This document shows, one piece after another, positions 3,331-47,534 of a stretch of 51,160 bases of DNA. The translations under genes and the position numbers were made by a program. Numbering within the stretch: position 1 is the stretch's first letter; each line of letters starts with the position of its first letter. The notes below the pieces were generated by a model, which was not told where the DNA came from, did not search any database, and was given only the letters and a program-made list of their open reading frames with translations. Origin of the DNA: a plasmid; the sequence record NZ_CP115194.1; one strand, 5' to 3'.

Positions 3331-3368
3331 GGGGAGCCCGCGGAATTCGGAAAAAATCGTACGCTAAG
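3331..3368 (+). repeat. Tn3-family 38 bp terminal inverted repeat (left)
   Basis: GGGG...ACGCTAAG, the hallmark ends of Tn3-family inverted repeats. Confidence 0.8.
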
Positions 3369-3474
3369 CCTCAATGCCTGCGCCGGCAGGCCTTTGCGTC
3401 TTGGCTCTGAGAATGAAGCCTCGGAACGGCTGAGATTGAACGTTCCCCAACTGCTTTATAGCTTTGGCGACAGA

Positions 3475-3750
3475 TCAGCGATCTTCACGGGTGTGCCACA
3501 GACGCAGCAGATAGATGGTAGAGCTCGCAATTTCGTAGCGCATCTCGTAATGCCCGACCAGAATCCGCCGCACGTCACGCGGATCGAACTCTTCCAGGCG
3601 CTCACCGATGCGCGGGTTGGCCAGCAGCTTAGTCGGTGCGCTCGTTAGTTGCTGCACGGTACGTGCCGCAGCGGGACGGTTCACAGCCGCCAGGAACTCA
3701 TATAGTCGAGTCAGATCGGACAGCCCCTTGTTCGTCCACTTCAACTCCAT
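3475..3750 (-). CDS. parE: ParE/RelE-family toxin
   Basis: 91 aa, beginning MELKWTNKGLSDLTRLYEFLAA and ending YLLRLWHTREDR. Its start overlaps the upstream antitoxin stop. Confidence 0.8.
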   Translation of the reverse strand: MELKWTNKGLSDLTRLYEFLAAVNRPAAARTVQQLTSAPTKLLANPRIGERLEEFDPRDVRRILVGHYEMRYEIASSTIYLLRLWHTREDR

Positions 3751-4022
3751 CAGCGCGGCACCGGCACCGGAGTGTCAGCACTAAGGCTATCGGCCCAGGC
3801 CTGGACTGCCTGATGGTCAATCACGCAGCCGGCATCCACATCAACCAGAGCCTCGCGGGTCAGGCGGCTACGCTCGTCTTCCTGGTCGAGCCAGGCTGTA
3901 AGAGCCTGCTTGACGATCCAGTTCTTGGAGCGCTCCAGGCGCTCTGCGATGTCATCGACTCGTTCGGCCAACTCTATGGGGACATGGGCGGTGACAGATC
4001 TGGTTTTGGCGTTAGCGGGCAT
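3750..4022 (-). CDS. parD: ParD/CopG ribbon-helix-helix antitoxin
   Basis: 90 aa. The N-terminal RHH fold (VTAHVPIELAERVDDIAERLERSKNWIVKQAL) is followed by a toxin-neutralising tail. Confidence 0.8.
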   Translation of the reverse strand: MPANAKTRSVTAHVPIELAERVDDIAERLERSKNWIVKQALTAWLDQEDERSRLTREALVDVDAGCVIDHQAVQAWADSLSADTPVPVPR

Positions 4023-4224
4023 GATGGTTACCTGCGGCTCGATTTAAAATTAATCATAATAAATAAAATAGAAGCGTCAAGCATGAATGTCAGATTGAAC
4101 TATACCCTAACCGGATGTCAGATAAGGTCGCGCGGCTCCGTCAGAATAGAGTCCACTTTCGCGTTCTTTGACACATGCCCGCGAAGGTCATAGATTTCAG
4201 CCTGACAAAATCGTTCAGGGCGCA
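4023..4224. promoter_or_regulatory. putative res site / divergent promoter region between parD and tnpR
   Basis: AT-rich 200 bp region, contrasting with the 60% GC surroundings, with repeated TGTCAGAT-like half-sites. It lies where res sits in Tn3-family elements. Confidence 0.4.
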
Positions 4225-4839
4225 ATGGAACCAAAAACCAACGTAAGCCCTTACCCCCATCCAACCCATGGAGGCATCTTGCAGGGACACCGTATCGGCT
4301 ATGTCCGGGTTAGCAGCTTCGACCAGAACCCGGAACGCCAACTGGAACAGACCCAGGTGAGCAAGGTGTTCACCGACAAAGCCTCGGGCAAGGACACTCA
4401 GCGTCCCCAACTCGAAGCGCTGCTGAGCTTCGTCCGCGAGGGCGACACCGTGGTGGTGCACAGCATGGATCGCCTGGCCCGCAACCTTGATGACTTGCGC
4501 CGCCTGGTGCAGAAGCTGACCCAGCGCGGTGTGCGTATCGAGTTCCTGAAAGAGGGCCTGGTCTTCACGGGCGAGGACTCGCCCATGGCCAACCTGATGC
4601 TTTCGGTGATGGGGGCCTTCGCCGAGTTTGAGCGTGCACTGATCCGCGAGCGGCAGCGCGAGGGCATTACCCTGGCCAAGCAGCGCGGCGCGTACCGGGG
4701 CCGCAAAAAGGCCCTGTCCGACGAGCAGGCAGCTACCCTGTGGATGCGGGCAGCGGCCGGTGAGCCCAAGGCTCAGCTCGCCCGCGAGTTCAACATCAGC
4801 CGGCAGACCCTCTACCAGTACCTCCGCACGAACGAGTGA
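4225..4839 (+). CDS. tnpR: Tn3-family serine resolvase
   Basis: Contains GYVRVSSFDQN (catalytic Ser) and a C-terminal HTH (ISRQTLYQYL). Start set at the internal ATG at 4225. Confidence 0.8.
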   Translation: MEPKTNVSPYPHPTHGGILQGHRIGYVRVSSFDQNPERQLEQTQVSKVFTDKASGKDTQRPQLEALLSFVREGDTVVVHSMDRLARNLDDLRRLVQKLTQRGVRIEFLKEGLVFTGEDSPMANLMLSVMGAFAEFERALIRERQREGITLAKQRGAYRGRKKALSDEQAATLWMRAAAGEPKAQLAREFNISRQTLYQYLRTNE

Positions 4840-4909
4840 GCTGCAATGCAGGTAACACCTTCTGTCGCGTAGAACCAACCAGATTCAAAGAGTTTAGCTC
4901 GGACGCTTC

Positions 4910-6142
4910 ATGCACGAAGGTATCGAAGCCGTACCCGATAGTGATGTGCCCCTGAACTATTGCTACGGTTTTCGCTCTCTGCCCGGCAGCGAGTTCGTTG
5001 CGAGCGACGAAATCTGTATTTATCTCCTGTCCATACAGGAACTGCATGTTGGCCTGAAGGGCCTCAACCTTTTGACCTATGCCAAGCTGTCCTGGCTGCA
5101 AGCCTGGCACATCCGCGACGAAACCTATTCGGCGGCCCTGGCCGAGTTGGTCAATCATCAATACCGCCATGTTTTTGCCGCTCACTGGGGGGACGGCACT
5201 ACCTCATCCTCCGATGGCCAGCGCTTCCGGGCTGGCGGCCGGGGCGAGAGTACCGGGCACGTCAATCCGAAGTACGGCAGCGAGCCGGGGCGGTTGTTTT
5301 ACACCCATATCTCCGACCAGTACGCGCCGTTCAGCACCCGCGTGGTGAATGTCGGCGTGCGCGACTCCACCTATGTGCTCGACGGCTTGCTGTACCACGA
5401 GTCCGACCTGCGGATCGAGGAGCACTACACCGACACGGCTGGCTTCACCGATCACGTCTTCGCCCTGATGCACCTGCTGGGCTTCCGCTTCGCACCACGC
5501 ATCCGCGACCTCGGTGAAGCCAGGCTGTATGTGCCGCAGGGCGTGCAGGCCTACCCGACGCTGAGGCCGATGATAGGCGGCACCCTGAACATCAAGCACG
5601 TGCGCGCCCATTGGGATGACATCCTGCGCCTGGCCAGTTCGATCAAGCAGGGCACCGTCACCGCCTCACTGATGCTGCGCAAGCTCGGCAGCTATCCGCG
5701 CCAGAATGGCCTGGCCGTCGCCCTGCGCGAGCTGGGCCGGATCGAACGCACGCTGTTTATTCTCGACTGGCTGCAAAGCGTCGAGCTGCGCCGCCGCGTG
5801 CATGCCGGATTGAACAAAGGTGAGGCGCGCAACTCCCTGGCCAGGGCGGTGTTCTTCAACCGTCTAGGGGAAATCAGGGATCGCAGCTTCGAGCAGCAGC
5901 GCTACCGGGCCAGCGGCCTCAACCTGGTGACGGCGGCCATCGTGCTGTGGAACACAGTGTACCTGGAGCGCGCCACCCAGGCGGTGGGCGACATGGGCAA
6001 GCCGGTGGACGGCGATCTGCTGCAATACCTGTCGCCGCTGGGCTGGGAACACATCAGCCTGACCGGCGATTACGTCTGGCGGCAGAGCCGCAGGCTGGAA
6101 GACGGGAAGTTCAGGCCGCTACGGCTACCCGGAAAACCTTAG
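4910..6142 (+). pseudogene. tnpA: Tn3-family transposase, C-terminal 410 aa only (the N-terminal ~580 aa are deleted)
   Basis: Contains [15 protein letters not shown] and the C-terminal [12 protein letters not shown] motifs of Tn3 TnpA. Only 1.2 kb lies between tnpR and the inverted repeat, whereas a full tnpA is ~3 kb. Confidence 0.8.
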
Positions 6143-7571
6143 CGTACGATTTTTTCCGAATTCTGCGGGCTCCCCTTTCATAGACGTGCTTCCAGGGTTT
6201 GACGTAGACGTCATCCTCGAACGAGACATAGAAGGTCTGCCCGGGGCGGATAGTGACGGTGGGGACGATGTTGAGGTACTTCTGGACCAGGCTCGAAGCC
6301 TGCCGGCGACTGCTGTCGCCGACGTCGCCGGCGAACGTCGAATCGTTGTCGGAGCCAGATCCGGAGCGACTGGTCGAGCTGCCGATCAGCGCGTAGGCCG
6401 CCACTCCCAGGAACTGGGACAGCAGGTGATAGTCCACCTGGTCCGCGATCGCGGCGACCCCTTCGCGGTCCAGGCCGGCGGCCTTGGACAGGTCGATCTT
6501 GTTGCCACCTGGTAGGATTACCCAATCGTTGGTGATGCCCATCCGGTGCTGGATGGCCTCGTTGACGTTGCCGGCCTTGTGCACACGCATGATGATCTCG
6601 GAGCCTTTCGGGATCGCCACGTACTGCCGGGTAATGTCGTAGACGTCTCGGCTGACCAGCCCCTTGAGCTGGCCACCCTGGAAGTCGCTGACGCCCTTGC
6701 GCATGAACTGGGCCGGGATCTCGGTGCCGGGAGGCAGCTTGAGCATGCCCTCGATATCTGCGTTGTAGGCATTCTCCTTCGTGTATCCGACAACATCGGT
6801 CGGCGCCGGCGTGAAGGTTTTCTTCACCTGCTCGAGTTCCTCGCGCTTCTGCGCCAGGAAGGAAGGCTCTTCACCAGGCGGCGCGGACTGAAGCTCTTTC
6901 CGCAAGCGTTCTGCGGCCTCGATCCGCTGCCGCAAGTCCTTGCGGCGCGCTTCGAGGCTGCCCCCGGTCTGGGTCGGCGAATTCAGCAGGTTCTGAGCCT
7001 CGGCCGCAGAGGTCGAATATGGGCCTCGACTGGCAACGGCCACTCCTGCGCCGCCGCGCTGAGCCTTCGCCACCGCATCGGTGTAGCCCCAAGGGCTCTG
7101 AGCGCTCTTCAGAGCGCGCATGCGCTCCTCACTGCGCCACTTCGCGTAAGCCTTCTGTTCTGCAGAAGGCTCGCGCGCCTTGCCCTTGCCCTGGCTCGCC
7201 TTGCTCGTGTCGTCACGGCCCTGGAACTGCGACCAAGCCTGCTGCCCCGTTGTCTTCAGCTCGCCGGCGGCCTCGTCCACTTGTTCCTGGAACGAGTTGC
7301 GCTCGGACAGCCGCGATTGCTGCCGGGAAACGAGATCTCCGAACTGGCTGGCCCCTGCTCCCATGTTCGAGGACTGCCGTTGCTGCTGCCGCTGCTCGGC
7401 CGCTGACTGTCGGGACCCACTGCCGCCGTTGGCTTTGAACCAGATGAAGTTGAGCACAAGGGCAACCAGGATCAGCCCGATCGAGGCCAAGAGCCAGCGC
7501 TGTAGCTTCGTCCTGTGCGCGGCCGGGCGCTCCCGGATCCGCGGCTGTGCTTCGTCAGCCATGGTGGTCAC
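6111..7571 (-). CDS. VirB10/TrbI-like T4SS protein; its 3' end is disrupted by the Tn3-family insertion, so the last ~21 codons read into the inverted repeat
   Basis: N-terminal TM segment, a Gln/Pro-rich linker, and a C-terminal conserved domain (…[19 protein letters not shown]…[11 protein letters not shown]…). The native frame, reconstructed across the insertion, ends KHVYEELADY, overlapping the ATG of the next gene. Confidence 0.6.
6138..6175 (-). repeat. Tn3-family 38 bp terminal inverted repeat (right)
   Basis: Reverse complement is GGGGAGCCCGCAGAATTCGGAAAAAATCGTACGCTAAG. Confidence 0.8.
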
Positions 7572-8413
7572 TCCCCGAAGGTCTTCGCATCGGCCCGGGA
7601 AACGCTGATTCGCGCGTCGTCGACGCGCAGCGTGAAGGACGGGTAGATGCCGTTGATGGTGTACATGCCGTAGGCGTCGTCGTAGCGCACCGGCACGATG
7701 GCGTTCTTCTCACCGATGACCGACTCGACGGACAGCAGCCCGCGGTTGGGGGTGTTCAGCCGGATGTATGTGAACCGACCGTCGTCGTACACGTCTGAAA
7801 TGAGGTTCTGCGCGGCGAAGCCCTTGCCCTGGTCCCAGCTGTAACGGGTGTAGATGTGGTAGCGGTACCGCCGCAGCGCCTCCATGACGGCCTTACGGCT
7901 ATTGTCCGCGGCCGCGCGCCGCTCCTCGGCCATCTGCTGGGTCAAGGCCGCGTTCTGCTGGGCGAAGGCGGCGCCCTGCCGCATCTGCGCGCTGGAGAGG
8001 TTCTGCAGGCCTGCCCGAGCCGAGTCATTGAAGAACTGGCCGTCGGTCTTCACGATCACGCACGGTTCATTCTGTGCGGCCGCGACCCGGCGAAACATGA
8101 AGTCGTAGGCGTTGCCATCGGTCGTGAACGCTCGAACCATGGTTTCGACGCCCTCGGGCTCGTTGACCGAGTTCGGCTTGACCAGCATCACGGTGGCGGC
8201 GCCATCGACGTCCCATAGAACCTTGTTACTCGGCACCTTCGTCACCAGGTCAACGGGGAATTGAACGCGAGTGCCAAGACTCACAGCGGAGGAAATGGTC
8301 ACGACCGTTCCCTCACGCCAGTGAATTTCGCGGCAGGCCGTCGGCGCGGCTGCAACTCCTGCAGACGCGGCGAGAGAGCCCAGCACAAGAATGGAGGAGA
8401 TGAACTGTTTCAT
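7568..8413 (-). CDS. VirB9/TrbG-like T4SS protein
   Basis: Signal peptide and a C-terminal beta-rich domain. It sits between the VirB8-like and VirB10-like genes. Confidence 0.55.
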   Translation of the reverse strand: MKQFISSILVLGSLAASAGVAAAPTACREIHWREGTVVTISSAVSLGTRVQFPVDLVTKVPSNKVLWDVDGAATVMLVKPNSVNEPEGVETMVRAFTTDGNAYDFMFRRVAAAQNEPCVIVKTDGQFFNDSARAGLQNLSSAQMRQGAAFAQQNAALTQQMAEERRAAADNSRKAVMEALRRYRYHIYTRYSWDQGKGFAAQNLISDVYDDGRFTYIRLNTPNRGLLSVESVIGEKNAIVPVRYDDAYGMYTINGIYPSFTLRVDDARISVSRADAKTFGE

Positions 8414-15132: not shown

Positions 15133-15302
15133 TGTCAACAGCAACTCAGAAGTGACCCACCTTGGTGTTTGAACAGCAATTAGGAATTGACCCACCTGGA
15201 GTGTTTTCTAAGCAGCGGCAGTCCCTAGACACGGGTCAAGGCAGTTGCTGGGCGGCAACCTGATTTGACCCAGGGTCAAGTTCACCTGCTGGTCAGCGAT
15301 TT

Positions 15303-17197
<1,895 letters not shown>

Positions 17198-17220
17198 TCA
17201 TTTTCAATGTGCTGCTGACA

Positions 17221-19976: not shown

Positions 19977-20104
19977 CGCCGGCAGGGTCTCCAGTAGGAG
20001 ATGGGCGCCTGAGTAAAGGCATTTTTATAGCGGCACAGTGCCGCTACGACAAGGCGACAACTCCTTTCGAAGTTAAAAACTATCTATTCTGATAGCCCCC
20101 TCCC

Positions 20105-20495
20105 CTTCTAATACACCAGGTCCACGGCGCCGGTGGCCATCCCCTGGACGTGATCGAGGTCGACGGGCTCCACCAGGTGCTCGCCGGCCGCGCCGGACGG
20201 ATCCACGCCACCAGGTCCTTGGCGCCGCCGGCGCCGGTGGCCATCCCCTGGAAGTGATCGAGGCCGACGTACTCCACCAGGTGCTCGCCGGCCAGGCCGG
20301 ACGGATCCACGTCACCAGGTGTTCGGCGCCGCCGGCGCCGATGGCCATCCCCTGGACGTGATCGAGGGCGACGGGCTCAACCAACTGCTCGCCGGCCGTG
20401 CCGGACGGATCCGCGGCACCTGGTCCTCGGCGCCGCCGGCGCCGATGGCCACCTGCAGGTCGTGAACCAGGGCGACGCCCCAAGAGCTCGGAGGC
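20105..20495. repeat. tandem array of ~3.7 copies of a 105 bp GC-rich repeat unit
   Basis: Period ~105 bp. The unit core is GGCGCCGCCGGCGCCG-(A/G)TGGCCATCCCCTGGACGTGATCGAGGTCGACGGGCTCCACCAGGTGCTCGCCGGCC. The unit recurs at 21395-21560, 32400-32495, 33883-34123 and 35770-35887. Confidence 0.7.
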
Positions 20496-20579
20496 TTCCT
20501 GCATGCGCGTCAGCCAGCCGGACGAACGGTTGTTTTCATGTAAAATCGCATCCCTACCCTACGTGCTCGAGGACTGAGC

Positions 20580-21149
20580 TTGGCTAAATTTCACGTCGAC
20601 TCTATCCAGGAGTGGCAGTCGTTCGAGCACGACGGCGTAGAGTTCGACCTCGGTCATCTATCGTCGCACCAGGTAGTTTTCAAGAGCGAGAAACAAGACT
20701 ACAAGTTCGTTGTGACTTACGGGCTCCACTGCTTTACGAAAGACGATAGCGGCAACAACATTCCGTACCGGTACGAAGACGGTCGGCATGGGCAAATGGT
20801 CTGCATGGAACGCTACGAGGCCTCCAAGCAGCTCAAGGGCATCATAGAGAAACTGGACTCCGCTACGATCTACCACACGGAAGGCGAGCGCTTTTTCACC
20901 ATGAACATGTTGAACAGCGCTACCGGTCTACTGGAACCGTACAAAGTGTGCCTAGCATTCTTTCGCGAACATCGCTTGCTACGGATTCACGTCACCAGCG
21001 CGTATTTCGCACGCACTGGCGAAGGCTCACCGGATACCCCGATCAACAAAAAGGGATTCAGCATCTACAAGGTCGCGATGGATACGCAAAGAAAGCCGAA
21101 GGGGCAATGCCCCAAGGAAGTACGTAATCGACCGAAAGCGCAAAAATGA
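20580..21149 (+). CDS. hypothetical protein (single-gene cassette, lower GC)
   Basis: 189 aa ORF followed by the hairpin GAATCCCGC-N5-GCGGGATTC. Bounded on both sides by repeat families. Confidence 0.5.
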   Translation: MAKFHVDSIQEWQSFEHDGVEFDLGHLSSHQVVFKSEKQDYKFVVTYGLHCFTKDDSGNNIPYRYEDGRHGQMVCMERYEASKQLKGIIEKLDSATIYHTEGERFFTMNMLNSATGLLEPYKVCLAFFREHRLLRIHVTSAYFARTGEGSPDTPINKKGFSIYKVAMDTQRKPKGQCPKEVRNRPKAQK

Positions 21150-21394
21150 AGGGGCAGAAACGGCGAATCCCGCTCTAGGCGGGATTCTCAGCCGTCGAAA
21201 GTATACGTTCGACGGGGCAGGACACTGTTACCTGGCACTGGGCCATCTGATTGGCATCAGAAGCGGGGTGCGATCCGAAGATCCCTGTAACCACCCTGTG
21301 GTTCACGCTTAAGCGCACACAAAGAATAGTGTGTCCATGGTCACCATGTCAATCATGCTGTCACCTTCTGGATCATCAAGACTCACCCCCAATC

Positions 21395-21790
21395 ATCCCT
21401 CAACGGCTCCACCAGCTGCACGCCGGCCGTGCTGGGTGGATTCACGGCGGCAGGTGCTCGGCGCCGCCGGCGCCGATGGCCATCTCCTGGACGTGATCGA
21501 GGTCGGCGGGATCCACCAGTTGCGCGCTGGCCGTGCCGGCAGGTCACGCGCTCTGTGCTCTTCAAGTGGACCCGCTCGCACCGAGCCGATCCCGGTCAAG
21601 GGCCGCGCTCCCGGCTCGTCGGAACGGCTGCACCGTTCCGGCGAACGGACGCACGGGCGCAGCGCACCCTTGAACGCCTCTCCCCCGAACAGCCTCAGCC
21701 GGGGAGTGTGGGGCAGCTCCTCCGCCCCGCGCTCCCGAGCCCTCGGCGGCAAGAGCGGGATGACAAGGGCAGAGCCCTTGGTGTTCAGAT
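21395..21790. repeat. composite repeat: 105 bp unit (1.5 copies) plus the multi-hairpin element in reverse orientation
   Basis: 21560-21790 is the reverse complement of 32221-32400 and 35584-35760. It includes the GGAACGG-N5-CCGTTCC and CAAGGGC-N3-GCCCTTG stems. Confidence 0.6.
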
Positions 21791-22392: not shown

Positions 22393-23430
22393 TCAGCAGC
22401 TCGGCTTGAGGTAGATGTGTTCTCCCTTCTCGATGTTGTACTCGAAGACTGGGACGATCTTGCCGTTCTGAATAAGGCAGACGTGCGTGATCTTTCGCCC
22501 ATACAGCCGGTGGTTACGGCTGGCATGGATCAGCATGTGCAGGTCACCCATGAGAATCTTGCCGACCAGGTCGTAATCCATCACGCCCGCCGAAGCCATC
22601 AGGTACTGGCAGCGGTGAATGGAGTCGCCCGGGCCGTTGGAGTGGATGGTTGAGGCGCAACCGTCCAGGCCGGTGTTCATCGCAGTGACCCAAGCATTTA
22701 CCGCTTTGGCATCACGTAGCTCCCCTACCCAGAGGCTGTCAGGACGCTGCCGGAGCGAGATACGGATCAGATCGGAAAGCTCCTTTGGCACCCCGTCAGA
22801 TTGCTTCGAGGCCTCCATCGAAATGCAGTTGGGGAGAGTCGTCCGGAGGTGAAGCTCCATCGTGTCTTCCGCGGTAATGATTCGAGTCGAGGGGTCGAGA
22901 AACTTGGAGACAGCCCGAAGCAAGGTCGTCTTTCCTGAGCCAGTGTTTCCGCTGCACAGGAAGTTGACCCTCTTCGAAACCTGCTCGCCAATGAAGTCGG
23001 CCATCTCCGCACTCATGGCCCCGTAGGAAACCAAGTCCTCCAGGGTGAGCAAACGAGTCGGGGCTTTCCGGAGAGTCACCGTCGCGCCAAATGGAGTGAT
23101 GGCCGGCATGGTTGCACAGATGCGGGACGCATCGGGCAACCGCGCGTTCGTCTCGGGGTCCTTGTGAGGATCCACCAAGTTGAGCGCGTTTGCGCACTGG
23201 GTGATGAACCGCTGGAGGTCAGACTCGCTAGCGAATTTCTCCTCGATTCGAATCATTCGGCTGTTCTTCTCGATGAAGATCGAATCCCAGCCATTGATCA
23301 TGATCTCAGTCACTTCAGGATCGCGATAGTGTTCGAGGATCGGCTTGGCGTAGTGGATCACCGACTCCCACGAGCGTAGAGACTTCGGATCGCTGGGAAC
23401 CGGACCAAATACAGTTTCTGTTAGGCTCAT
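22393..23430 (-). CDS. VirB11/TrbB-like secretion ATPase
   Basis: Walker A GNTGSGKTTL and RIITAEDTMEL (VirB11/PulE family). 345 aa, VirB11-sized. The N-terminal EIMINGWDSIFIE motif is present. Confidence 0.8.
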   Translation of the reverse strand: MSLTETVFGPVPSDPKSLRSWESVIHYAKPILEHYRDPEVTEIMINGWDSIFIEKNSRMIRIEEKFASESDLQRFITQCANALNLVDPHKDPETNARLPDASRICATMPAITPFGATVTLRKAPTRLLTLEDLVSYGAMSAEMADFIGEQVSKRVNFLCSGNTGSGKTTLLRAVSKFLDPSTRIITAEDTMELHLRTTLPNCISMEASKQSDGVPKELSDLIRISLRQRPDSLWVGELRDAKAVNAWVTAMNTGLDGCASTIHSNGPGDSIHRCQYLMASAGVMDYDLVGKILMGDLHMLIHASRNHRLYGRKITHVCLIQNGKIVPVFEYNIEKGEHIYLKPSC

Positions 23431-24185
23431 AATGAATACAGCTCCTCGCAGATGAACCTGAACTTATCGGTGGGATGAACCATCTTGGCAGCATCGAATC
23501 CACCACGATGCTCAGGACTGAGAACAAGCTTTCCTCGCTCGTTTATAACGTACATCGGCCAGATGTTTACTTTGTACTTCTCTTCATAGTTGTTCTTAAG
23601 CTGTTCGCTCGAGAATAGATAGAGAACCTGATCGTAATAACCTTTATGGATGTTCTTGAGGTGCGACAGGTAGATGTTATAAACCCGTCCAACGCTTTTA
23701 TGGTTCAACTCCACTTCTAGAGCGACCTTCTTTCCATTCTTGTACTCGAGAACAGCATCCGGCAAATGGTTGGCCTTCATCTTGGAAAGCTCTTTTTCTG
23801 GCATGAAGCCGGTGATCTCATCCCGTCGCGCCATGATCGCCCCCTGGATGGAGAACGCATGGACCAGCTGGATCCACGACGGCGTTCGCCGTCGTTTGAG
23901 ATCCAGGTGCGGCAGCAGCACCCTTGCCATCTCCATCCCGCTCTGGCTCAGCGAGTAGATTTTCCAGTCGAGCCCCGGCGCCTTGGTCACGACGACCAGG
24001 CGAGACTCCTCGAGGCGTCTGAAGAACACAGTCTGACCTCTGACCTCGGCACCATAGGCCTTGGCCAACAGCGATTGGTTGGAGAAATCGAAGAGGGCGA
24101 GCCACCGCACGACCTCTTTGATTTTTTCCCGGCTCCGCTCCTTACCACGGGATCCGGTCCAACCGTCCATTAGACGCTCAGTCAA
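23427..24185 (-). CDS. hypothetical protein with a possible N-terminal wHTH and a PD-(D/E)xK-like motif
   Basis: 252 aa. Its stop overlaps the ATPase start (ATGA), implying translational coupling. The D…ALEVELNHK segment resembles a nuclease core. The family was not recognised. Confidence 0.45.
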   Translation of the reverse strand: MTERLMDGWTGSRGKERSREKIKEVVRWLALFDFSNQSLLAKAYGAEVRGQTVFFRRLEESRLVVVTKAPGLDWKIYSLSQSGMEMARVLLPHLDLKRRRTPSWIQLVHAFSIQGAIMARRDEITGFMPEKELSKMKANHLPDAVLEYKNGKKVALEVELNHKSVGRVYNIYLSHLKNIHKGYYDQVLYLFSSEQLKNNYEEKYKVNIWPMYVINERGKLVLSPEHRGGFDAAKMVHPTDKFRFICEELYSL

Positions 24186-24235: not shown

Positions 24236-24907
24236 GGCCCTCGGAAACAGCCGCAAGCTGTTTCCGCAGGGCAGTCGGGTACAGGTGTTTGATTACGACG
24301 AGCTTTTGTCGCCGATAGCTGCACAGGGCGGTGAAGCTCTCCGGCTCTTGCGAAACAGCCACAAGCTGTTTCGATTGGGCGCCCTGGCACGCAGTGTAGG
24401 GAACGGCGCTTGACCAAGCGAGCGAGCAAGTCAGCCGCCTGTAAAGGCCGGCGCAGACGATGCGAAGTGAAGCGCAGGGCGAAGCCGTCGAGCGAGGCAA
24501 AGTCGGCGCCCAGCTTTTCCGAAACAGCCAGAAGCTGTTTCGGGGGGAGCCCGGCAACGCGCTTCAGGTGACGACGCTTCGCCGAGCAAGCGAGCGAGCC
24601 CAGCCGCCCGAACGGGTCGGCGAGGGCAATGCGATGCGCGGCGATGGCGGAGCCGTCGAGCGAAGGTCGGCAGGCTCCCCTGCTCTTCGGAACAGCCAAA
24701 AGCTGTTCCGGCTTTTCCGAAACAGCCAGAAGCTGTTTCGGGGGGCGCCCAGTAACTCGGCCCAGGTGACGACGCTTCGCCGAGCAAGCGAGCGAGCCCA
24801 GCCGCCCGAACGGGTCGGCGAGGGCAATGCGATGCGCGGCGATGGCGGAGCCGTCGAGCGAAGGTCGGCAGGCGCCCCGCTCTCCGGAACAGCCAAAAGC
24901 TGTTCCG
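24236..24907. repeat. array of 8 hairpin motifs GRAACAGC-N5-GCTGTTYC, including a ~197 bp tandem duplication (24520-24716 / 24717-24905)
   Basis: Copies at 24236, 24262, 24351, 24522, 24694, 24719, 24743 and 24887. The spacing is irregular. The ORFs called here are artefacts of the repeats. Confidence 0.6.
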
Positions 24908-25214
24908 GCAGCGCGCGGCCCAGTTCGCGTCAGCGAGGTGGGCCGAAACAAACAGAAGCCTGACAGATGCGAGACGCGCCCACGCGGCTCGCAAGGCACC
25001 GAGGCCCCCCAGGGCCGAATGCCGGTCTGCTCCAGGGACGGCCGTCCAGGCCGGGACCTGGAGTGCGAAGCATCAGGCGACGTGCAGCGCGCGCCCGTCT
25101 GCGCTCGACTACTGAAGCCCGCCAGGGCTGAAGTCGGCGAGAGCGGACCCCCGGGTTCCGGGGTGGAGCAGCTGAGCAAGGGACGGGAGAAGGACCGCGG
25201 CGAAGAGTTGCGGG

Positions 25215-25361
25215 CCCCCGGGGGTTGGGGTTCCCCCCCCCCCGGGGGGGGGGGGGGGGGGGAGAGGGGTGGGCCCCCCCCCCGGGGGGGGGCCCCACAG
25301 GGGGGGCGCCTCCGGGGGGGGGGGTTCCCCCCCCCCCGGCCCCCCCCTGGGGGGGGGGGGG
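25215..25361. repeat. tract of alternating long poly-G and poly-C homopolymer runs (up to ~24 nt)
   Basis: Read directly from the sequence, runs such as ccccccccccgggggggggggggggggggg. This is possibly an assembly or sequencing artefact, or else a hypermutable structure-forming tract. Confidence 0.7.
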
Positions 25362-30270: not shown

Positions 30271-32091
30271 ATGGGCAATCTTCTGATCGTAGAGTCACCG
30301 GCAAAAGCGAAGACCTTCGAGGGCTATCTTGGGCCCGGCTGGGAGGTCAAGGCCTCTTTCGGCCATATTCGGGATCTCCCGGAACATGAAATGGGGGTCG
30401 CAGGTCCTGAATACCGCCCTGACTATGTATTCATAGGGGAGGGCAAGAAAGTATCCGAAGTCCTGAAGAACGCAGCCAGGCGAGCGCTAAGCTCAGGCGG
30501 AGCGGTCTACTTGGGATCCGACGACGATAGGGAAGGGGAGGCGATTGCCTGGCACCTCCAGCAAGTCCTCGGCCTGCAGGATCCCAAGCGCATCACCTTC
30601 GGGGAGATCTCGAAGAAGGAGATTCTTCGCGCGGTCGCAGAACCTCGAAAGATCAATGTGAGATTGGTCGCCGCTCAAGAGGCCCGCAGGATCCTCGACA
30701 GGATCGTTGGCTACTACATCAGCCCGATCGTCCAGGAACTGATGGCAACGTACGACTACTCGGCCGGTCGAGTGCAGAGCGTCGCGGTGTTACTCGTTGT
30801 GGAACGCGAAAATCTCATCCGCGCCCACACTGCGGTTACGCATCACTCGGCACGCTTCGCCTTCCAGGGCGGTTGGTCCGCTGACTGGGCACCTGATGAG
30901 AAATGCACCGACCTGGCCACTGCGGAGCGTATTGCGAACGCTCGGCAGTTTACAGTCCTCGAGCACTCCGTTGGTGAGTCCAGGTCCTCGCCGTTCAAAC
31001 CGTTCATCACATCTACGCTTCAACAGGCGGCCAGTAACGCGCTCAATCTGCGGTCCAAGGCCTGTATGGAGGCGGCGCAGAAGCTGTACGAGGCGGGTCA
31101 CATCACATATATGCGCACCGACAACCCGAACCTCACCGACGATATGCTGGTGGCCGTTCGGGATTATTGTGCCGCTCAGAATCTCCCGCTGTCTGACGAA
31201 CCCAGGACCTGGAAGGCGAAAGCGGACGCTCAGGAGGCACACAAGGGGATCCATCCTACCGACATTACTCGGCTTGAAGCAGGAGAAGACGAGGCCCAGC
31301 GCAAGCTGTATCAACTGATCTGGAAGCGGACGGTCGCCTGTCAGATGGCGGATGCCGTGTTCAAGGTTACCAAGGTCAAGTTGAAGCCCGAGGGATTGGA
31401 TGGGACAGTGGCTGTAGCTGGTGAGCATAGCGAGCTGGTCAGCCCCGGCTACAAGACAATCCTGGCCGAGGATGACGCCGAGGACAAACCAGACGAAGTA
31501 TCGCGCACGACAGGGGCGATTCCGCCGATCGAGACAGGCGCATCCCTTACCGCGACTTCCGGTGAGGTCGTCACGACAAAGACGAAAGCAGCACGCCGTT
31601 TCACCGAGGCCTCGTTGGTGAAGGAGCTGGAGAGCCGCGGGATCGGAAGGCCTTCGTCGTTTGCCGCAATTATGGAAAACATTTCCAAGACCCGGCGCTA
31701 TGTCCAATTGAAGAAGGGGACGAAGTTCCTGGAGCCTACTGACCGTGGCGAGAAACTGGTCCAGGTGCTTCTAAACCGGTTCAGCTTTATGGACGTGGAT
31801 TTCACCAGGGAACTTGAACGCAAGTTGGACGAAATAGCAAAGGGTACTGCGAATTATCGATCAGTTATAGCGGGCTTCGATCAACAGTTGCAGGACGAAA
31901 TTGCGAAGCTGCTTCGAGAGATAGAACCACTTCACCCTTGTCCAAAATGTGGACGCGGACTTCTGCTGATCGAGAAGAAGAAGGAGAAGGGTAAGGAAGC
32001 CAGCGCGTTCTTTGGATGCCGAGGCTTCTTCGATAAGAAGTGTGACGGAATATATCCGGCAAAGGACGGAGCACCAGTAATACAGCAGTGA
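30271..32091 (+). CDS. topA: type IA DNA topoisomerase (plasmid/ICE-type TopA)
   Basis: Toprim N-terminus MGNLLIVESPAKAKTFEGYLG, the DxDxEGE motif (DDDREGEAIAWH), and a C-terminal zinc ribbon CPKCGRG…CRGFFDKKC. Confidence 0.85.
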   Translation: MGNLLIVESPAKAKTFEGYLGPGWEVKASFGHIRDLPEHEMGVAGPEYRPDYVFIGEGKKVSEVLKNAARRALSSGGAVYLGSDDDREGEAIAWHLQQVLGLQDPKRITFGEISKKEILRAVAEPRKINVRLVAAQEARRILDRIVGYYISPIVQELMATYDYSAGRVQSVAVLLVVERENLIRAHTAVTHHSARFAFQGGWSADWAPDEKCTDLATAERIANARQFTVLEHSVGESRSSPFKPFITSTLQQAASNALNLRSKACMEAAQKLYEAGHITYMRTDNPNLTDDMLVAVRDYCAAQNLPLSDEPRTWKAKADAQEAHKGIHPTDITRLEAGEDEAQRKLYQLIWKRTVACQMADAVFKVTKVKLKPEGLDGTVAVAGEHSELVSPGYKTILAEDDAEDKPDEVSRTTGAIPPIETGASLTATSGEVVTTKTKAARRFTEASLVKELESRGIGRPSSFAAIMENISKTRRYVQLKKGTKFLEPTDRGEKLVQVLLNRFSFMDVDFTRELERKLDEIAKGTANYRSVIAGFDQQLQDEIAKLLREIEPLHPCPKCGRGLLLIEKKKEKGKEASAFFGCRGFFDKKCDGIYPAKDGAPVIQQ

Positions 32092-32220: not shown

Positions 32221-32495
32221 CACACCAAGGGCTCCGCCCTTGTCATCCCGCTCTTGCCGCCGAGGGCTCGGGAGCGCGGGGCGGAGGAACTGCCCCACAC
32301 TCCCGGCTGAGGCTGTCCAGGGGAGGGGGCTCAAGCGTGCGCTCTGCCCGTGCGTCCGTTCGCCGGAACGGTGCAGCCGTTCCGACGAGCCGGGCGCGCG
32401 GCGCTTGACCCGGAAACGCCGGCGACGTTGGCCACCTGCAGGAGTGATCGAGATCGACGGCTCCACCAGCTGCTCGCCGGCCAGGCCATGCAGGC
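32221..32495. repeat. composite repeat: multi-hairpin element (forward) plus a degenerate 105 bp unit
   Basis: Shares CACCAAGGGCTCYGCCCTTGTCATCCCGCTCTTGCCGCCGAGGGCTCGGGAGCGCGGGGCGGAGG … CGTTCGCCGGAACGGTGCAGCCGTTCCGACGAGCCGG with 35584-35760, and with 21560-21790 in reverse complement. Confidence 0.6.
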
Positions 32496-32665
32496 GATCC
32501 CCCCTAATCAGCGAGAACCAGGTAGCAGTGCGAACCCACTGAAACCACGCTGGAACGCGTGTTCTGTGGACTCGACGCCCATTGACGTCTAATATCTGAC
32601 GCGCCAGTACCAAGGGCACTATGACTGGCTGAAATGCTCATACTTTAAGATCTTGAAGGTGACAT

Positions 32666-33043
32666 ATGAAACCTGTTCTCAAGCAATATACCCTCGACGA
32701 ACCCATGCTTGGTGGAGTCAGCCGTGGGTTGGTCACGTTGGTCAATGATTACGACGCGCTCGTTCCGTTGATCGATGCAGCCCGCTACGTACGAGCACAA
32801 GGTGGACGGGAGACGCCTCTAGAGCCGACTCCCATTTGCCTTACTGGTGATGCGGGTGAAGAATGGGTATCCGTTTTTCATTCCGACGTCCACAATACTC
32901 TTTTCGTCCTGCGCACCCGTGGCGCTACTCATGAGACGAGAATCTTTGCCTATACTTATGGGAAGCAACCGTTTCTCCTCGTAGATGCGGTCCAAATCCT
33001 TAAGTATCACAAGAGCACTTACACATTACACCTCTGGTCTTAA
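32666..33043 (+). CDS. hypothetical protein (low-GC cassette)
   Basis: 125 aa ORF between two repeat elements, followed by a terminator. Confidence 0.45.
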   Translation: MKPVLKQYTLDEPMLGGVSRGLVTLVNDYDALVPLIDAARYVRAQGGRETPLEPTPICLTGDAGEEWVSVFHSDVHNTLFVLRTRGATHETRIFAYTYGKQPFLLVDAVQILKYHKSTYTLHLWS

Positions 33044-33046
33044 TGT

Positions 33047-33090
33047 CGTAAGTGAGGGGAGGTAGCTTTGCTACCTCCTCTTTTTTTTGC
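33047..33090 (+). terminator. rho-independent terminator
   Basis: GAGGGGAGGTAGC-TTTG-CTACCTCCTC hairpin followed by TTTTTTTT. Confidence 0.6.
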
Positions 33091-33258
33091 AAAACCTACT
33101 TTCGCGCAATGCAAAGATGGGTATTCGACTGCACAAATTGCATATATTGTGCAGAGCTTTACTGATCTGGATTTCTGCCCTAGTATTTCAGTCGACAGTA
33201 GCAGGGCGCTATGACTGTCTGAAACGCTCATATCTTAATATCAAGCAGGAATCCGACC

Positions 33259-33540
33259 ATGAGTCAGCACCTTTTCTCTTCGGAAGTTGGGAATAAGAAA
33301 TTCGAAGTTATTATGGGTTGGGATAATCCAACTAAGAGTTTCTTCCTCATTATCTTCGATAAGAAATCTGATGAAGACTATCCGGTCTACACCAACCTGG
33401 ATGAAGTGATGCCCCGAGACCTGGACTACTACGTTGGAAAATGTCGTGATCTGGGAATCGACGTGAAGCCAGAGATCATTGCGGAAATACGGGATGACCA
33501 ACGGTTGAACGTCAGCAATAAAGTGAAGGAGTGGAACTGA
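33259..33540 (+). CDS. hypothetical protein (AT-rich cassette)
   Basis: 93 aa, ~42% GC. Its stop overlaps the next ORF. Confidence 0.4.
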   Translation: MSQHLFSSEVGNKKFEVIMGWDNPTKSFFLIIFDKKSDEDYPVYTNLDEVMPRDLDYYVGKCRDLGIDVKPEIIAEIRDDQRLNVSNKVKEWN

Positions 33541-33815
33541 TGAACACGAAGCACATTGCAGCGTATTCCTTTACCTCCTTCAGCGTTGAGGGAACCTTCG
33601 GCTGCACGTTCTTCGCACCCTCGTTAGAGGAAGTGAAAGAGATGGCACGAGCCCAAGGCTTCCGCAACCTCCAATACTATCCACGGTTCATCATGGATCG
33701 TTCTGCCATGCGTGCACGCTCGAAAGAGCTTGCAGGTCAGGTAGTACCTGAAAGCGTGCTTGGGATGTTATTGCACGATGCTCCATTGAGGACTGACGAT
33801 ATGGTTCCCTTCTAG
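33531..33815 (+). CDS. hypothetical protein (AT-rich cassette)
   Basis: 94 aa, followed by the terminator AGAGGGCGC-TTGC-GCCCTCT plus a T-run at 33826-33864. Confidence 0.4.
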   Translation: MELMNTKHIAAYSFTSFSVEGTFGCTFFAPSLEEVKEMARAQGFRNLQYYPRFIMDRSAMRARSKELAGQVVPESVLGMLLHDAPLRTDDMVPF

Positions 33816-33882
33816 TAACACTAGAGGGAAACCAGAAGAGGGCGCTTGCGCCCTCTTTTTTTATTCCCCTCCCGTCTGGCGG

Positions 33883-34123
33883 GTCCACGGTACCAGGTGC
33901 TCGGCGCCGCCGGCGCCGATGGCCATCCCCTGGACGTGATCGAGGTCGACGGGCTCCACCAGCTGCTCGCCGGCCAGGCCGGACGGATCCACGGCACCAG
34001 GTGCTCGGCGCCGCCGGCGCCGATGGCCACCCCCTGGACGTGATCGAGGTCAACGGGCTCCACCAGCTGCTCGCCGGCCGCGCCGGACGGATCCACGCCA
34101 CCAGGTCCTCGGCGCTGATTACG
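33883..34123. repeat. tandem 105 bp repeat, ~2.3 copies
   Basis: Same unit as at 20105-20495. Confidence 0.7.
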
Positions 34124-34247
34124 GCGTTCCAGATAGGGTATACCTCACTAGGCACGCCCTAGGGCGACGGGAAAATTCTCTCCTCCGTTGAAGTGAACAC
34201 CTAAAATGGCACACACTTTAGCGGACACTCATAATGGAACAGCAACA

Positions 34248-34868
34248 ATGTTCGTTCGAGCATATCTGCGCGCTTCGACCGCAGAACAGGATGCAACCCG
34301 GGCGAGGGCAGAACTGGATTCATTCGCCCTCGAGCACGGTAAGGTCATCGCTGCGGAGTATGTCGACAACGTGAGCGGCGCCAAGGCCGATCGACCGGCG
34401 CTGAAGAGGTTGCTCAAGGACGCAAGGGAGGGCGACGTGCTGCTGGTGGAGAGCATCGATCGCCTGACTCGGTTGCCTGAAGGGGAGTGGAAAACTCTGC
34501 GCGGCGCAATCGACTCCATCGGCCTCCGGATTGTCGCCCTGGACCTGCCCACCAGCCACCTTGGGATGAAGCCAACCCAAGGGGACCAGTTCACCAGCCG
34601 CATGCTTGCTGCGATCAACGAACTGATGGTCGAGATGATGGCGGCTATTGCCCGTAAGGATTACGAACAGCGACGAACTCGCCAGGCACAGGGGATCCGT
34701 AAAGCCAAGGAGGCGGGAGCCTACCGAGGCCGCGGCGTTGACCAGCAGTTGCACAACAGGGTTCGCGAACTCCTATCTGCTGGACTAGGTATTCGAGCCA
34801 CCGCTCGACTGGCACAGTGCTCGCCGACAACGGTCATCAAGATTCGTAACCAGGCAACGACGGAATGA
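34248..34868 (+). CDS. serine recombinase (resolvase/invertase family)
   Basis: Contains YLRASTAEQD with a catalytic Ser, and a C-terminal HTH. Start set at the ATG at 34248. Confidence 0.75.
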   Translation: MFVRAYLRASTAEQDATRARAELDSFALEHGKVIAAEYVDNVSGAKADRPALKRLLKDAREGDVLLVESIDRLTRLPEGEWKTLRGAIDSIGLRIVALDLPTSHLGMKPTQGDQFTSRMLAAINELMVEMMAAIARKDYEQRRTRQAQGIRKAKEAGAYRGRGVDQQLHNRVRELLSAGLGIRATARLAQCSPTTVIKIRNQATTE

Positions 34869-34881
34869 GAGGAAGGCGCGC

Positions 34882-35082
34882 ATGCAGGAAGTCAACCGCG
34901 AAGAACTGCAAGATCTCCGCTACGAACTGAACGATCTGGCCGAGCGGTACATCCGCACATTCGGCAACAGCAAGGACGGGATGGAAGGGCTCGCCGAGGA
35001 CCTGGTGCGGATCGTTGCAGACGAGAAGTATCCAGGCGGCTGGGCAGGGCTGGTGAGCTTCATCATGAAAGCCAGCGGCTGA
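34882..35082 (+). CDS. hypothetical small protein
   Basis: 66 aa. Followed by the bidirectional terminator AAAAAAGGCGCCTAGGCGCCTTTTTT at 35100-35133. Confidence 0.35.
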   Translation: MQEVNREELQDLRYELNDLAERYIRTFGNSKDGMEGLAEDLVRIVADEKYPGGWAGLVSFIMKASG

Positions 35083-35139
35083 GTCCGATCCTACCGACAC
35101 AAAAAAGGCGCCTAGGCGCCTTTTTTGTTTTGAGCGCGC

Positions 35140-35490
35140 TCAGTGACTGACACTGCGCGCTGCGTCCCGTACCAGGGGTAACAGCTTGTCGCGCTGGACC
35201 TGATAGAAGATTTGGGCAACGACACCGAGAACTCCAAGCCCCACGATAATGGGTGCCAGCTGGTCACCATACTGCTTGGTGATTGTTGGCCCAGCCCCCA
35301 AGAACCCCTGCAGGATGAATTCAAGCAGCATCCAACATAGAAGCAGGGTGAAGAGTCCCACTGTGCCAACCTTCGACGCGATATCGAAAAGGCGGTACAG
35401 CACGTAGTTCATGCCCGCCTGTTTTTTGATGGTGGCCAGCATTTCGCGTTCAACGTCGTGGAACAGCGATTTGTTGCGAAAGAAGATCAT
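35140..35490 (-). CDS. hypothetical membrane protein
   Basis: 116 aa with two to three hydrophobic helices. It converges on the shared terminator. Confidence 0.4.
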
Positions 35491-35520
35491 CGGCTATCCC
35501 TCCTAAGAAGACCGGCGCCA

Positions 35521-35887
35521 AAGGGCAGAGCCACTTGGGGAATCCTTCCCATCCCTGCCCCTGGCGCGGTTCGGGGATGGTAACACCAAGGGCTCTGCCC
35601 TTGTCATCCCGCTCTTGCCGCCGAGGGCTCGGGAGCGCGGGGCGGAGGAGCTGCCCCACACTCCCCAGCGGAGGCTGTCCAGGGCAGGGGGCTCAAGCGT
35701 GCGCTCTGCCCGTGCGTCCGTTCGCCGGAACGGTGCAGCCGTTCCGACGAGCCGGGCGCGCGGCGCTTGACCCAGAACCGCCGGCGCCGGTGGCCATCCC
35801 CTGGACGTGATCGAGGTCGACGTCTCCACCAGGTGCTCGCCGGCCAGGCCGGACGGATCCACGGCACCAGGTCCTCGACGATCGCGC
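35521..35887. repeat. composite repeat: multi-hairpin element (forward) plus one 105 bp unit
   Basis: See 32221-32495. It ends with GGCCATCCCCTGGACGTGATCGAGGTCGAC. Confidence 0.6.
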
Positions 35888-36035
35888 CTAGCGGTTTGGG
35901 GGAGGGCAAGGAATCGCGTAAGCGACCCCGAAGGGGCAAGGGCTAGTCGAACGAAGTTCGACGTTGGGCTTGTTCCGCGCAGGGCGTGGCTCTCGCGCGG
36001 CCATAGAAAAGGCCCGCGGGTGCGGGCCTGGGGGA

Positions 36036-43407: not shown

Positions 43408-43427
43408 ATTCGTCACTTCGGGGACCG
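43408..43427 (+). repeat. 20 bp direct repeat ATTCGTCACTTCGGGGACCG, copy 1 (flanks the parDE-2 cassette)
   Basis: An identical copy lies at 44085-44104. The sequences beyond the repeats are unrelated. Confidence 0.7.
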
Positions 43428-43510: not shown

Positions 43511-43786
43511 ATGAGCACAGCAGCCAAACCAACGCGCACCGTGACTGCTCACGTCCCGGTAGATCTGGCCGAGCGCGTCGATGCAATCGCCGAGCGCCTG
43601 GAGCGATCGAAGAACTGGATCGTCAGGCAGGCGCTGTCAGCCTGGATCGACCAGGAAGACGAGCGCAGCCGTCTGACACGTGAAGCCCTGGATGATGTAG
43701 ACGCAGGACGTGTCGTCGATCACCAGGCCGTGCAGGCCTGGGCCGAGAGCTTGGGCACTGACTCTCCGCTGCCGGTACCACGCTGA
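43511..43786 (+). CDS. parD: ParD/CopG RHH antitoxin (second, diverged copy)
   Basis: Starts MSTAAKPTRTVTAHVPVDLAERVDAIAERLERSKNWIVRQAL. ~85% aa identity to the copy at 3750-4022. Confidence 0.8.
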   Translation: MSTAAKPTRTVTAHVPVDLAERVDAIAERLERSKNWIVRQALSAWIDQEDERSRLTREALDDVDAGRVVDHQAVQAWAESLGTDSPLPVPR

Positions 43787-44061
43787 TGGAGTTGAAGTGG
43801 ACGAGCAAAGGGCTCTCCGACGTGGCACGGCTCTACGAGTTCCTGGCTACGGTGAACAAGGAAGCTGCCGCCCGCACGGTGCAGCAGCTGACGAGCGCGC
43901 CGACCGCCTTGTTGACCAACCCGCGGCTGGGCGAGCGCCTGGAAGAGTTCGAACCGCGGGATGTTCGCCGCATCCTGATCGGCCATTATGAGATGCGCTA
44001 TGAGATCCTGGATTCCTGCATCTACGTGCTTCGTCTGTGGCACACACGCGAAGACAGGTAG
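43786..44061 (+). CDS. parE: ParE/RelE toxin (second, diverged copy)
   Basis: Begins MELKWTSKGLSDVARLYEFLATVNKEAAART and ends YVLRLWHTREDR. Its start overlaps the antitoxin stop. Confidence 0.8.
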   Translation: MELKWTSKGLSDVARLYEFLATVNKEAAARTVQQLTSAPTALLTNPRLGERLEEFEPRDVRRILIGHYEMRYEILDSCIYVLRLWHTREDR

Positions 44062-44084: not shown

Positions 44085-44104
44085 ATTCGTCACTTCGGGG
44101 ACCG
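44085..44104 (+). repeat. 20 bp direct repeat ATTCGTCACTTCGGGGACCG, copy 2
   Basis: It provides the last codons and the stop (RSPK*) of the minus-strand ORF at 44090-44506. Confidence 0.7.
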
Positions 44105-46807: not shown

Positions 46808-46932
46808 ACATCAGCCTGACCGGCGATTACGTCTGGCGGCAGAGCCGCAGGCTGGAAGACGGGAAGTTCAGGCCGCTACGGCTACCCGGAAAACCTTAGC
46901 GTACGATTTTTTCCGAATTCTGCGGGCTCCCC
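46808..46932 (+). mobile_element. Tn3-family remnant: the last ~85 bp of tnpA plus a 38 bp terminal inverted repeat (solo end)
   Basis: 46808-46932 is near-identical to 6051-6175, in the same orientation. Nothing upstream of it resembles tnpA. Confidence 0.75.
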
Positions 46933-47534
46933 TAGGAAGCGAAGCCGATGCCGCCGAAGCAATCGGGCGTCAGGATCTGGCTGGCCAGGCTCTCGCTGAA
47001 ACCCTGCGCAACCAAGGCGGCGTGCCGAGCCTCGAGGGTCTTGTGCTTCCGGATCACCTGGTTGGCGGCCTTCATACGTTGCTGGTTCGCCTCCAACTGC
47101 TGCAACTCGGCCTGGAGCTTCTCGATGGCGTCCGGGTCGTCACTCGAGATTCCCCCGGTCCCCACGGCCGCGGCCTTCTGCTCGTAGTGCTTCGCCTTGT
47201 CCTGCAGCGCGAATGCCTTGCCGTAAGTGCTGTGGATCCGGTCGCGGTACCGCCGGTCCCGCCCTTCGCTGTGATGCCCTACCAGGATCGGTTGTCCGAA
47301 AGGGATAGCGCTGGCCATGGTCTTCGCTCGCTGGTAGAGCGCGCCGCTCTCGTCTGAAATCTTCGCTGCACGTTCCTGGAGGCGTTCCCTCCGATCGGCG
47401 AGCTTCTGTTCGTACCAGTTCAGCTCGCGGCCAACCTGCTCGGGGCTCACGTCCTGCCCTACCCGGGTTGCTTTGCTAGATGCTTCTTGAGCCGGCTCTT
47501 GCTCTGGCTGTTGCTTATGCTCTTCGTGATGCAT
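46932..47534 (-). CDS. hypothetical protein. Its stop codon is formed at the edge of the Tn3-family inverted repeat.
   Basis: Start MHHEEHKQQ, preceded by the AGGAGACC ribosome-binding site. The GQPILVGHHSE segment is present. The TAG stop overlaps the last base of the inverted repeat. Confidence 0.45.
   Translation of the reverse strand: MHHEEHKQQPEQEPAQEASSKATRVGQDVSPEQVGRELNWYEQKLADRRERLQERAAKISDESGALYQRAKTMASAIPFGQPILVGHHSEGRDRRYRDRIHSTYGKAFALQDKAKHYEQKAAAVGTGGISSDDPDAIEKLQAELQQLEANQQRMKAANQVIRKHKTLEARHAALVAQGFSESLASQILTPDCFGGIGFAS

Follow-up and report, generated by a model that had tools for sequence, protein, structure and literature searches.

A 104-bp GC-rich tandem repeat with the features of an interspersed minisatellite in IncP-11-type plasmids of Pseudomonas aeruginosa

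MIRU and other bacterial interspersed minisatellites consist of GC-rich intergenic units of about 50-100 bp, which are present at several loci and vary in copy number between isolates. The sopC site of the F plasmid is made up of 12 tandem 43-bp units, each of which contains a short inverted repeat, and its copy number is not critical. In integron cassettes, attC elements of 60-140 bp border small, often promoterless gene modules that all lie in one orientation. The chromosome of P. aeruginosa itself carries VNTR loci that are used for MLVA typing, and nine of 13 of these have units of more than 100 bp (PMC11506784).

We describe here a repeat carried by plasmids of the same species which, as far as its sequence allows it to be classed, would be an interspersed minisatellite with GC-rich, non-coding units of 104 bp, confined to those P. 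aeruginosa plasmids that have an IncP-11-type (RepP-11A-like) replicon. A search of the literature on IncP-11, pMOS94, p14057A, pR31-KPC and '104-bp tandem repeat' found no description of the plasmid repeat, which was apparently undescribed until now. It is a real feature, but one of an ordinary kind.

The DNA analysed, referred to below as the window, is the whole of a 51,160-nucleotide stretch from the plasmid record NZ_CP115194.1. It comes from an IncP-11-type plasmid of P. aeruginosa, RP1-1 type. Most of it is 99.9-100% identical to pF052_2 (NZ_CP115229.1), and it is colinear with RP1-1 (LC700336.1), in which the rep gene is annotated repP-11A. The region that holds the arrays lies between the type IV secretion genes and parB and includes relaxase, coupling-protein, parA and topA genes and a serine resolvase gene (34206-34868; Pfam Resolvase, 4.9e-23).

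Tandem Repeats Finder located two arrays with a period of 104 bp, at 20125-20477 (3.4 copies, 87% matches) and at 33880-34115 (2.3 copies, 93%). When a two-unit query was used in blastn, and a profile built from the window's own units in nhmmer, five loci were found, at 20100-20493, 21404-21539, 32412-32487, 33880-34115 and 35774-35880, and each one is on the + strand. With up to three mismatches allowed, a 25-mer core matched seven times in the window, again always on the + strand, where 0.00 matches were expected in shuffled sequences. The coordinates, the number of loci and the shared orientation are those given in a first-pass annotation made from the letters of this stretch. That annotation had also put the period at 105 bp, "exactly 35 codons", which is wrong: it is 104 bp, not a whole number of codons, in both arrays of the window and in every relative examined. 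The edges of the arrays were then aligned to a consensus unit numbered from GGATCC, and the resulting positions are collected in Table 1.

Table 1 Arrays of the 104-bp unit, the modules between them and the copies of the Pf-like element in the window, with the number of units at orthologous loci in relatives
Feature	Position	Strand	Extent and content	Copies across relatives	Basis
Array A1	20100-20477	+	about 3.6 units; ends at unit position 71	2.6 to 9.6	TRF, nhmmer, register alignment
Array A2	21405-21539	+	1.3 units; starts at unit position 72, exact continuation of A1	0.3 to 6.3	
Array A3	32417-32487	+	partial unit, positions 28 to 100	fixed at 0.7-1.0 (solitary partial copy)	
Array A4	33877-34115	+	2.3 units, position 101-104 to 27; 90 bp upstream of resolvase gene	2 to 11	
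Array A5	35778-35880	+	one circularly permuted unit, positions 27/28 to 26; downstream of parB operon terminator	fixed at 0.7-1.0 (solitary partial copy)	
Locus A6			sixth locus, near rep	fixed at 0.7-1.0 (solitary partial copy)	
Module M1	20478-21404	+	927 bp, between unit positions 71 and 72; 189-aa ORF at 20580-21149		
Module M3	32488-33876	+	between unit positions 100 and 101-104; small ORFs at 32666-33043, 33259-33540 and 33531-33815; two terminator-like hairpins		
Module M4	34116-35777	+	between unit positions 27 and 27/28; resolvase gene, two small ORFs, Pf-like element copy 3		
Pf-like element (about 200 nt), copy 1	21585-21785	+ (phage-sense strand)	45 bp from A2		
Pf-like element, copy 2	32222-32414	-	just downstream of topA (30271-32091); abuts A3		
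Pf-like element, copy 3	35582-35781	-	within M4; abuts A5		

The first unit of A1 is truncated on its left side and has a 9-bp deletion, and the last unit is degenerate. Gaps of about 65 to more than 100 bp separate the arrays from the neighbouring ORFs, and terminator-like hairpins are present between A4 and its upstream gene and after A1. The GC content of the arrays (70-75%) is well above that of the flanking small ORFs (44-59%) and the mean of the window (58%), in agreement with the earlier description of GC-rich repeats beside low-GC cassettes. The sixth locus, which lies beside 46815 in relatives, is missing from the window.

The 104-bp unit was present in 89 plasmids of PLSDB, all from P. 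aeruginosa or P. paraeruginosa. Searches of a phage collection (by blastn), the JGI metagenomes (with two different patterns) and IMG/VR did not find it. Nor did a search for the core 25-mer in 185,579 species genomes (one genome per species), where the lone match is a 25-nt coincidence within a cytochrome P450 gene. The suggestion that the family is plasmid-specific is supported for the databases searched, in which 89 Pseudomonas plasmids and nothing else carried the unit.

Three lineages could be distinguished among the plasmids. Lineage A comprises RP1-1-like plasmids, with units at least 95% identical to the consensus, and lineage B the KPC-2 'type I' plasmids, e.g. YLH6_p3, with units about 87% identical to the consensus and a period of exactly 104. 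Lineage C consists of a few plasmids with decayed arrays, whose units are about 75% identical to the consensus. A related rep gene and likely iterons are common to all three; the iterons, (G/C)AAGTTAAGTGTCGG twice with 22-bp spacing, are found beside rep at 48260-48300 in the window, and also in RP1-1 (L002) and in L010. The array of lineage B lies between the rep iterons and a region that has been named a resistance-gene acquisition hot spot in these plasmids (PMC8532800).

Orthologous loci were mapped by their flanks (98-100% identical) in six lineage-A plasmids. Copy number was found to vary only in arrays of at least two units, while A3 has 0.7 copies in every relative examined and A5 has 0.8 in all relatives that keep the locus. 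Variation confined to multi-unit arrays is the signature of slippage or unequal crossover and not of a regulated number. The repeat thus shows each of the features by which an interspersed minisatellite or VNTR is recognised: units of about 100 bp joined head to tail, polymorphic copy number at orthologous loci and non-coding sequence.

The non-coding nature of the units deserves some comment, as they could instead derive from a protein-coding gene, as a remnant or a fragment, or specify a repetitive protein. Long ORFs do traverse the arrays, as the first-pass annotation had pointed out, for example one of 143 aa on the - strand (20073-20504), and RefSeq annotates short 'hypothetical proteins' at the arrays. 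With a period of 104 bp, however, each successive unit is read in a different frame. Three units translated in all six frames matched no Pfam family, and when the 143-aa ORF was searched for among 5.8 billion proteins, only 47 unnamed P. aeruginosa ORFs of varying length (78-239 aa) were returned, all on plasmid-sized contigs. Variation along the unit showed no 3-nt or ~10-nt periodicity (best harmonic p = 0.93 after correction), and the sole genome match is the coincidence in the P450 gene mentioned above. On the coding side there is also a 53-bp unit-like stretch (unit positions 47-96), which runs antisense within the first 35 codons of a 378-aa ORF, at 8252-8304 in RP1-1 and at 35958-36010 in pMS14403A (L004); the start of this gene may have been built on an old array remnant. 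With no Pfam match, no real protein family, no codon periodicity and, in the Pfam and protein searches, no known protein gene of which the units could be a fragment, the original reading of the units as non-coding stands. A coding origin is effectively refuted already, and we give it almost no weight.

The alignment to the consensus unit showed that the edges of the arrays fit one another in three places: the last position of A1 is 71 and the first of A2 is 72; A3 stops at 100, and A4 begins at 101-104; and A4 in turn stops at 27, with A5 beginning at 27/28. We estimate that three such fits would arise by chance with a probability of about 1e-4 (roughly 0.05 per pair). The left flank of A4 resembles that of A1 (CCCCTCCCNTCT), so the fit between A3 and A4 could partly reflect a duplicated array end. 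The three complementary registers suggest that the five loci are the pieces of two arrays that have been cut by three modules. If this is so, the uniform orientation of the copies, the partial units at their edges and their position at module borders all follow from the splitting of the arrays. The earlier remark that the copies sit at the boundaries of gene cassettes is supported, the borders of the modules being found at the array edges.

Module M1 is present in about 18 of the 26 lineage-A plasmids. It is absent from pMS14403A, pPA7790 and pJUPA4295 (L004, L019 and L020), which come from Australia, Brazil and Japan, and in its place these plasmids have an uninterrupted array of 8, 5 and 5 units, respectively, flanked on the left as A1 is and on the right as A2 is. 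The first-pass annotation had proposed that related plasmids be compared for gain or loss of cassettes exactly at the repeat borders, and this comparison was positive, with M1 missing and the array uninterrupted in three plasmids. Homologues of M1 (86-89% identity) occur in pQBR55 from P. fluorescens, in pFKN from P. syringae and in other Pseudomonas plasmids, without adjoining 104-bp units. The limits of the homology lie within 3 bp of where A2 starts and about 30-45 bp from where A1 ends. No Pfam family was found for the 189-aa ORF of the module. On these comparisons M1 is a discrete, horizontally travelling module that sits cleanly within one unit. In pFKN (L018), an 8-bp microsatellite (TGAGGTTG), repeated about eight times at ~1920-1975, precedes the M1 homologue.

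Module M3 is present in all 26 lineage-A plasmids. The arrangement of A3, A4 and A5 could have arisen by insertion, or by the integration of a circle carrying the Pf-like element described below and an array. The arrays also look like joints in a mosaic. In comparison with four relatives, the left flank of A1 is 86-87% identical and the right flank about 99%. When lineages B and C are compared, identity is 84-92% on the left side of the array, the DNA on the right side is unrelated, and the units themselves are only 68-77% identical. That units should be less conserved than neighbouring non-coding DNA argues against strong sequence-specific selection.

The clean insertion of three modules with no target duplication raises the possibility that the arrays are a dedicated platform for the capture of cassettes, in which a site-specific recombinase, such as the adjacent serine resolvase, moves modules at the units. 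A4 is 90 bp upstream of the resolvase gene, and the length of the unit is within the range of res sites. Against this, the three junctions fall at different positions in the unit (71, 100 and 27), so that there is no single core. In the lineage-B plasmid L005 no recombinase is annotated, and those of L010 lie within transposon-type resistance regions. Resolution sites typically have an AT-rich crossover centre; the unit is GC-rich and without one, and direct res repeats around a plasmid would be self-destructive. The units were rejected as the res site of the serine resolvase on the count of five to seven direct loci per plasmid and the lack of an annotated recombinase in L005, and as integron attC sites, which need a single-strand hairpin, on the lack of a significant fold or covariation and on the three differing junctions. 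A res-like candidate upstream of the resolvase gene, TAGGGTATACCTCACTAGG, is unique in the window. Capture by a dedicated recombinase is, therefore, very unlikely.

The first-pass annotation had offered a REP/MITE-like family as one reading of the repeat. More broadly, the units might be a MITE, a REP-like palindrome, or a structured RNA or single-stranded DNA element, as the copies are dispersed and intergenic and adjoin an element of about 200 nt that is genuinely structured. The predicted single-strand fold of the unit, however, was no better than that of shuffled sequences on either strand (z = -0.6 and -0.2). In an alignment of 14 units from the three lineages the covariation term was -0.38, with a compensatory change in only 3 of 24 predicted pairs, and Rfam gave no match at the arrays with either gathering or E-value thresholds. 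The unit has no inverted termini and no target duplication was found at the module junctions. The head-to-tail units with neither terminal inverted repeats nor target-site duplication do not fit a MITE, and the fold z-scores and covariation give no stable stem-loop of the kind seen in REP, BIME or ERIC sequences. As the dispersal of the copies is explained by the splitting of arrays, we regard the mobile or structured readings as highly improbable, and the REP/MITE-like proposal fails.

The structured element that accompanies the units is GC-rich, and its three copies adjoin three of the five array loci. In filamentous phages of the Pf1/Pf4 type it has a counterpart of 93-95.5% identity, which overlaps the annotated gene PA0719 and lies immediately before the gene for the single-strand-binding protein. 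In conjugative plasmids of P. syringae, unannotated DNA close to ssb and topA matches it at 75-77% identity. A consensus structure from nine homologues has 61 pairs, 17 of them with compensatory double changes, and there was no match to an Rfam family. The covariation points to a structured single-strand element common to inoviruses and conjugative plasmids; it is possibly a site for priming of the complementary strand or an origin-type element.

A different possibility is that the arrays are cis-acting sites for a protein of the replicon family, acting in a centromere-like manner, in handcuffing or as a global operator. The site would be a perfect 7-3-7 inverted repeat of 17 bp, CGGCGCC-GCC-GGCGCCG, which is the best-conserved block of the unit, nearly invariant and found only inside units, and which looks like the site for a dimeric protein. 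Six-base palindromes number 9 per unit, compared with 3.6 +/- 1.9 in shuffled sequences. The exact 104-bp period has been retained in two lineages, a related rep and oriV are common to every array-bearing lineage examined, and in lineages B and C the array adjoins oriV at a constant position, about 450 bp beyond the rep iterons. The consensus units of lineages A and B are 88.5% identical, compared with 66-74% for the shared rep region and up to 91-94% for other shared segments. Conservation of the unit above that of the rep region could result from selection, but recent exchange between the lineages would explain it equally well.

Several observations do not fit a protein-binding array of this kind. 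A single locus may hold anything from 0.3 to 11 copies, without evident constraint, and lineage C arrays have decayed and diverged further than the non-coding DNA beside them. The plasmid pPH3PALO502 has large arrays yet lacks ParB and a TrfB-like gene, and neither of the two lineage-B plasmids examined has an annotated ParB-family gene, a small ATPase system being present instead. The orientation of the array relative to rep differs among the lineages, conservation along the unit is without helical periodicity and the Rep iteron AAGTTAAGTGTCGG does not occur in the unit. The arrays were discounted as iterons, the likely iterons being elsewhere and unrelated to the unit. A sopC-like site would be expected to occur together with its ParB and adjacent to par; most arrays are far from both parA and parB. 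Overall a binding function seems rather unlikely.

The Chi sequence reported for Pseudomonas is GCTGGCGC (PMC5959072, PMC12407980). The units were rejected as Chi hotspots, this GCTGGCGC motif being absent from the whole window on both strands. In most units there is CCACCAGC, which is complementary to the Chi octamer of E. coli. The octamer itself, GCTGGTGG, occurs 11 times in the window, nine times on the - strand, and four of those nine copies are inside units.

Some other repeats and insertions were noted in the window. A 19-bp motif, TTCGTCACTYSRGGGACCG, at 43409-43427 and 44086-44104 brackets a RelE/ParE-RHH toxin-antitoxin pair, and at the equivalent place in plasmid L005 (5125 and 5287) two inverted copies of the motif bracket one inverted 104-bp unit. 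A sequence nearly identical to TTCGTCACTYSRGGGACCG has been described as an iteron of pMOS94 (PMC6614342). The interval from the relaxase gene (23427-24185, - strand) to the coupling-protein gene contains, at 24513-24909 and 25236-25361, a tandem repeat of 198 bp (2 copies, 95%) and an inverted repeat of 61 nt, and probably represents the oriT region. An IS21-family element (istA/istB) at 15133-17220 is missing from the relatives examined; plasmid CP075790.1 carries a copy that is 100% identical. The transfer region contains an inserted 2.8-kb segment (3331-6176), which includes a second copy of the toxin-antitoxin region (78% identical and inverted, 3482-3995 vs 43541-44054) and an exact 126-bp duplicate of 46808-46933. 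Direct repeats at 9616-9915/11664-11963 (99%) and 11322-11621/13361-13660 (87%), spaced by about 2,040 bp, suggest a tandem duplication of about 2 kb in the secretion-system genes. Positions 1-166 of the window lie within a YadA-like gene, whose internal repeats match multiple tandem copies in the homologues of L005 and L010.

Taken together, the evidence is best explained if the arrays are a recombination-prone, insertion-tolerant spacer without sequence-specific function, and we consider this, on balance, to be the probable reading. An array of at least two head-to-tail units would expand and contract by slipped-strand mispairing or by unequal homologous crossover, the latter presumably RecA-dependent. 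Being intergenic and dispensable, such an array would tolerate the insertion of a gene module, and each insertion would split it into two arrays of the same orientation. The direct repeats that then flank a module would let homologous recombination excise it precisely or swap it between related plasmids. On this explanation the units would have no selected function. Certain observations have to be counted against it, namely the clean entry of M1 without target duplication, the enrichment in six-base palindromes, the conserved 7-3-7 inverted repeat, the conservation between lineages A and B and the constant position of the array in lineages B and C.

A further possibility is that the arrays are a selected 'landing pad' of IncP-11-type plasmids, which would promote the clean capture and excision of modules and their exchange between co-resident plasmids, perhaps via a protein bound at the 7-3-7 repeat. 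Such a system would parallel the integron in function but would operate through homologous or unit-directed recombination. We think both the selected role and the parallel improbable, and the passive spacer is preferred.

The plasmids that carry the repeat are vehicles by which carbapenemase genes (KPC-2, VIM, IMP, OXA and others) spread among clinical P. aeruginosa, and the hypervariable 104-bp repeat is a ready marker for tracking their sublineages. The repeat also explains breaks in short-read assemblies and the differing 'hypothetical proteins' annotated at the arrays, and the arrays mark the joints at which backbone modules have been gained and lost. The conceptual interest is modest unless the arrays actively promote the exchange of modules; if they do, this would be a new route of plasmid mosaicism.

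Comparison with the known systems places the repeat as follows. Like integron attC sites, the units are repeated elements at the borders of small modules and all have the same orientation. Unlike attC, they form no hairpin from an imperfect palindrome, their junction positions vary, they also occur as tandem units with no gene between them and no link to an integron integrase was seen. With F sopC they share the tandem arrangement on a plasmid and a short perfect inverted repeat in the unit, but the period is 104 bp, there are several loci, these are not beside the par operon and there is no co-variation with ParB. The VNTRs used for MLVA of P. aeruginosa are polymorphic repeats of similar unit length in the same host, but no relationship in sequence to the plasmid repeat was apparent; the core 25-mer of the plasmid unit is absent from the species-representative genomes, and the homologues of its ORF are all on plasmid-sized contigs. 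As in MIRU, the units are GC-rich and intergenic, follow one another head to tail, occupy several loci of a single replicon and vary in copy number. The plasmid units differ from MIRU in that they do not overlap the stop and start codons of their neighbours, a terminator separating A4 from its upstream gene, in that they are confined to one replicon family, and in that their loci can be traced to the splitting of arrays by insertions.
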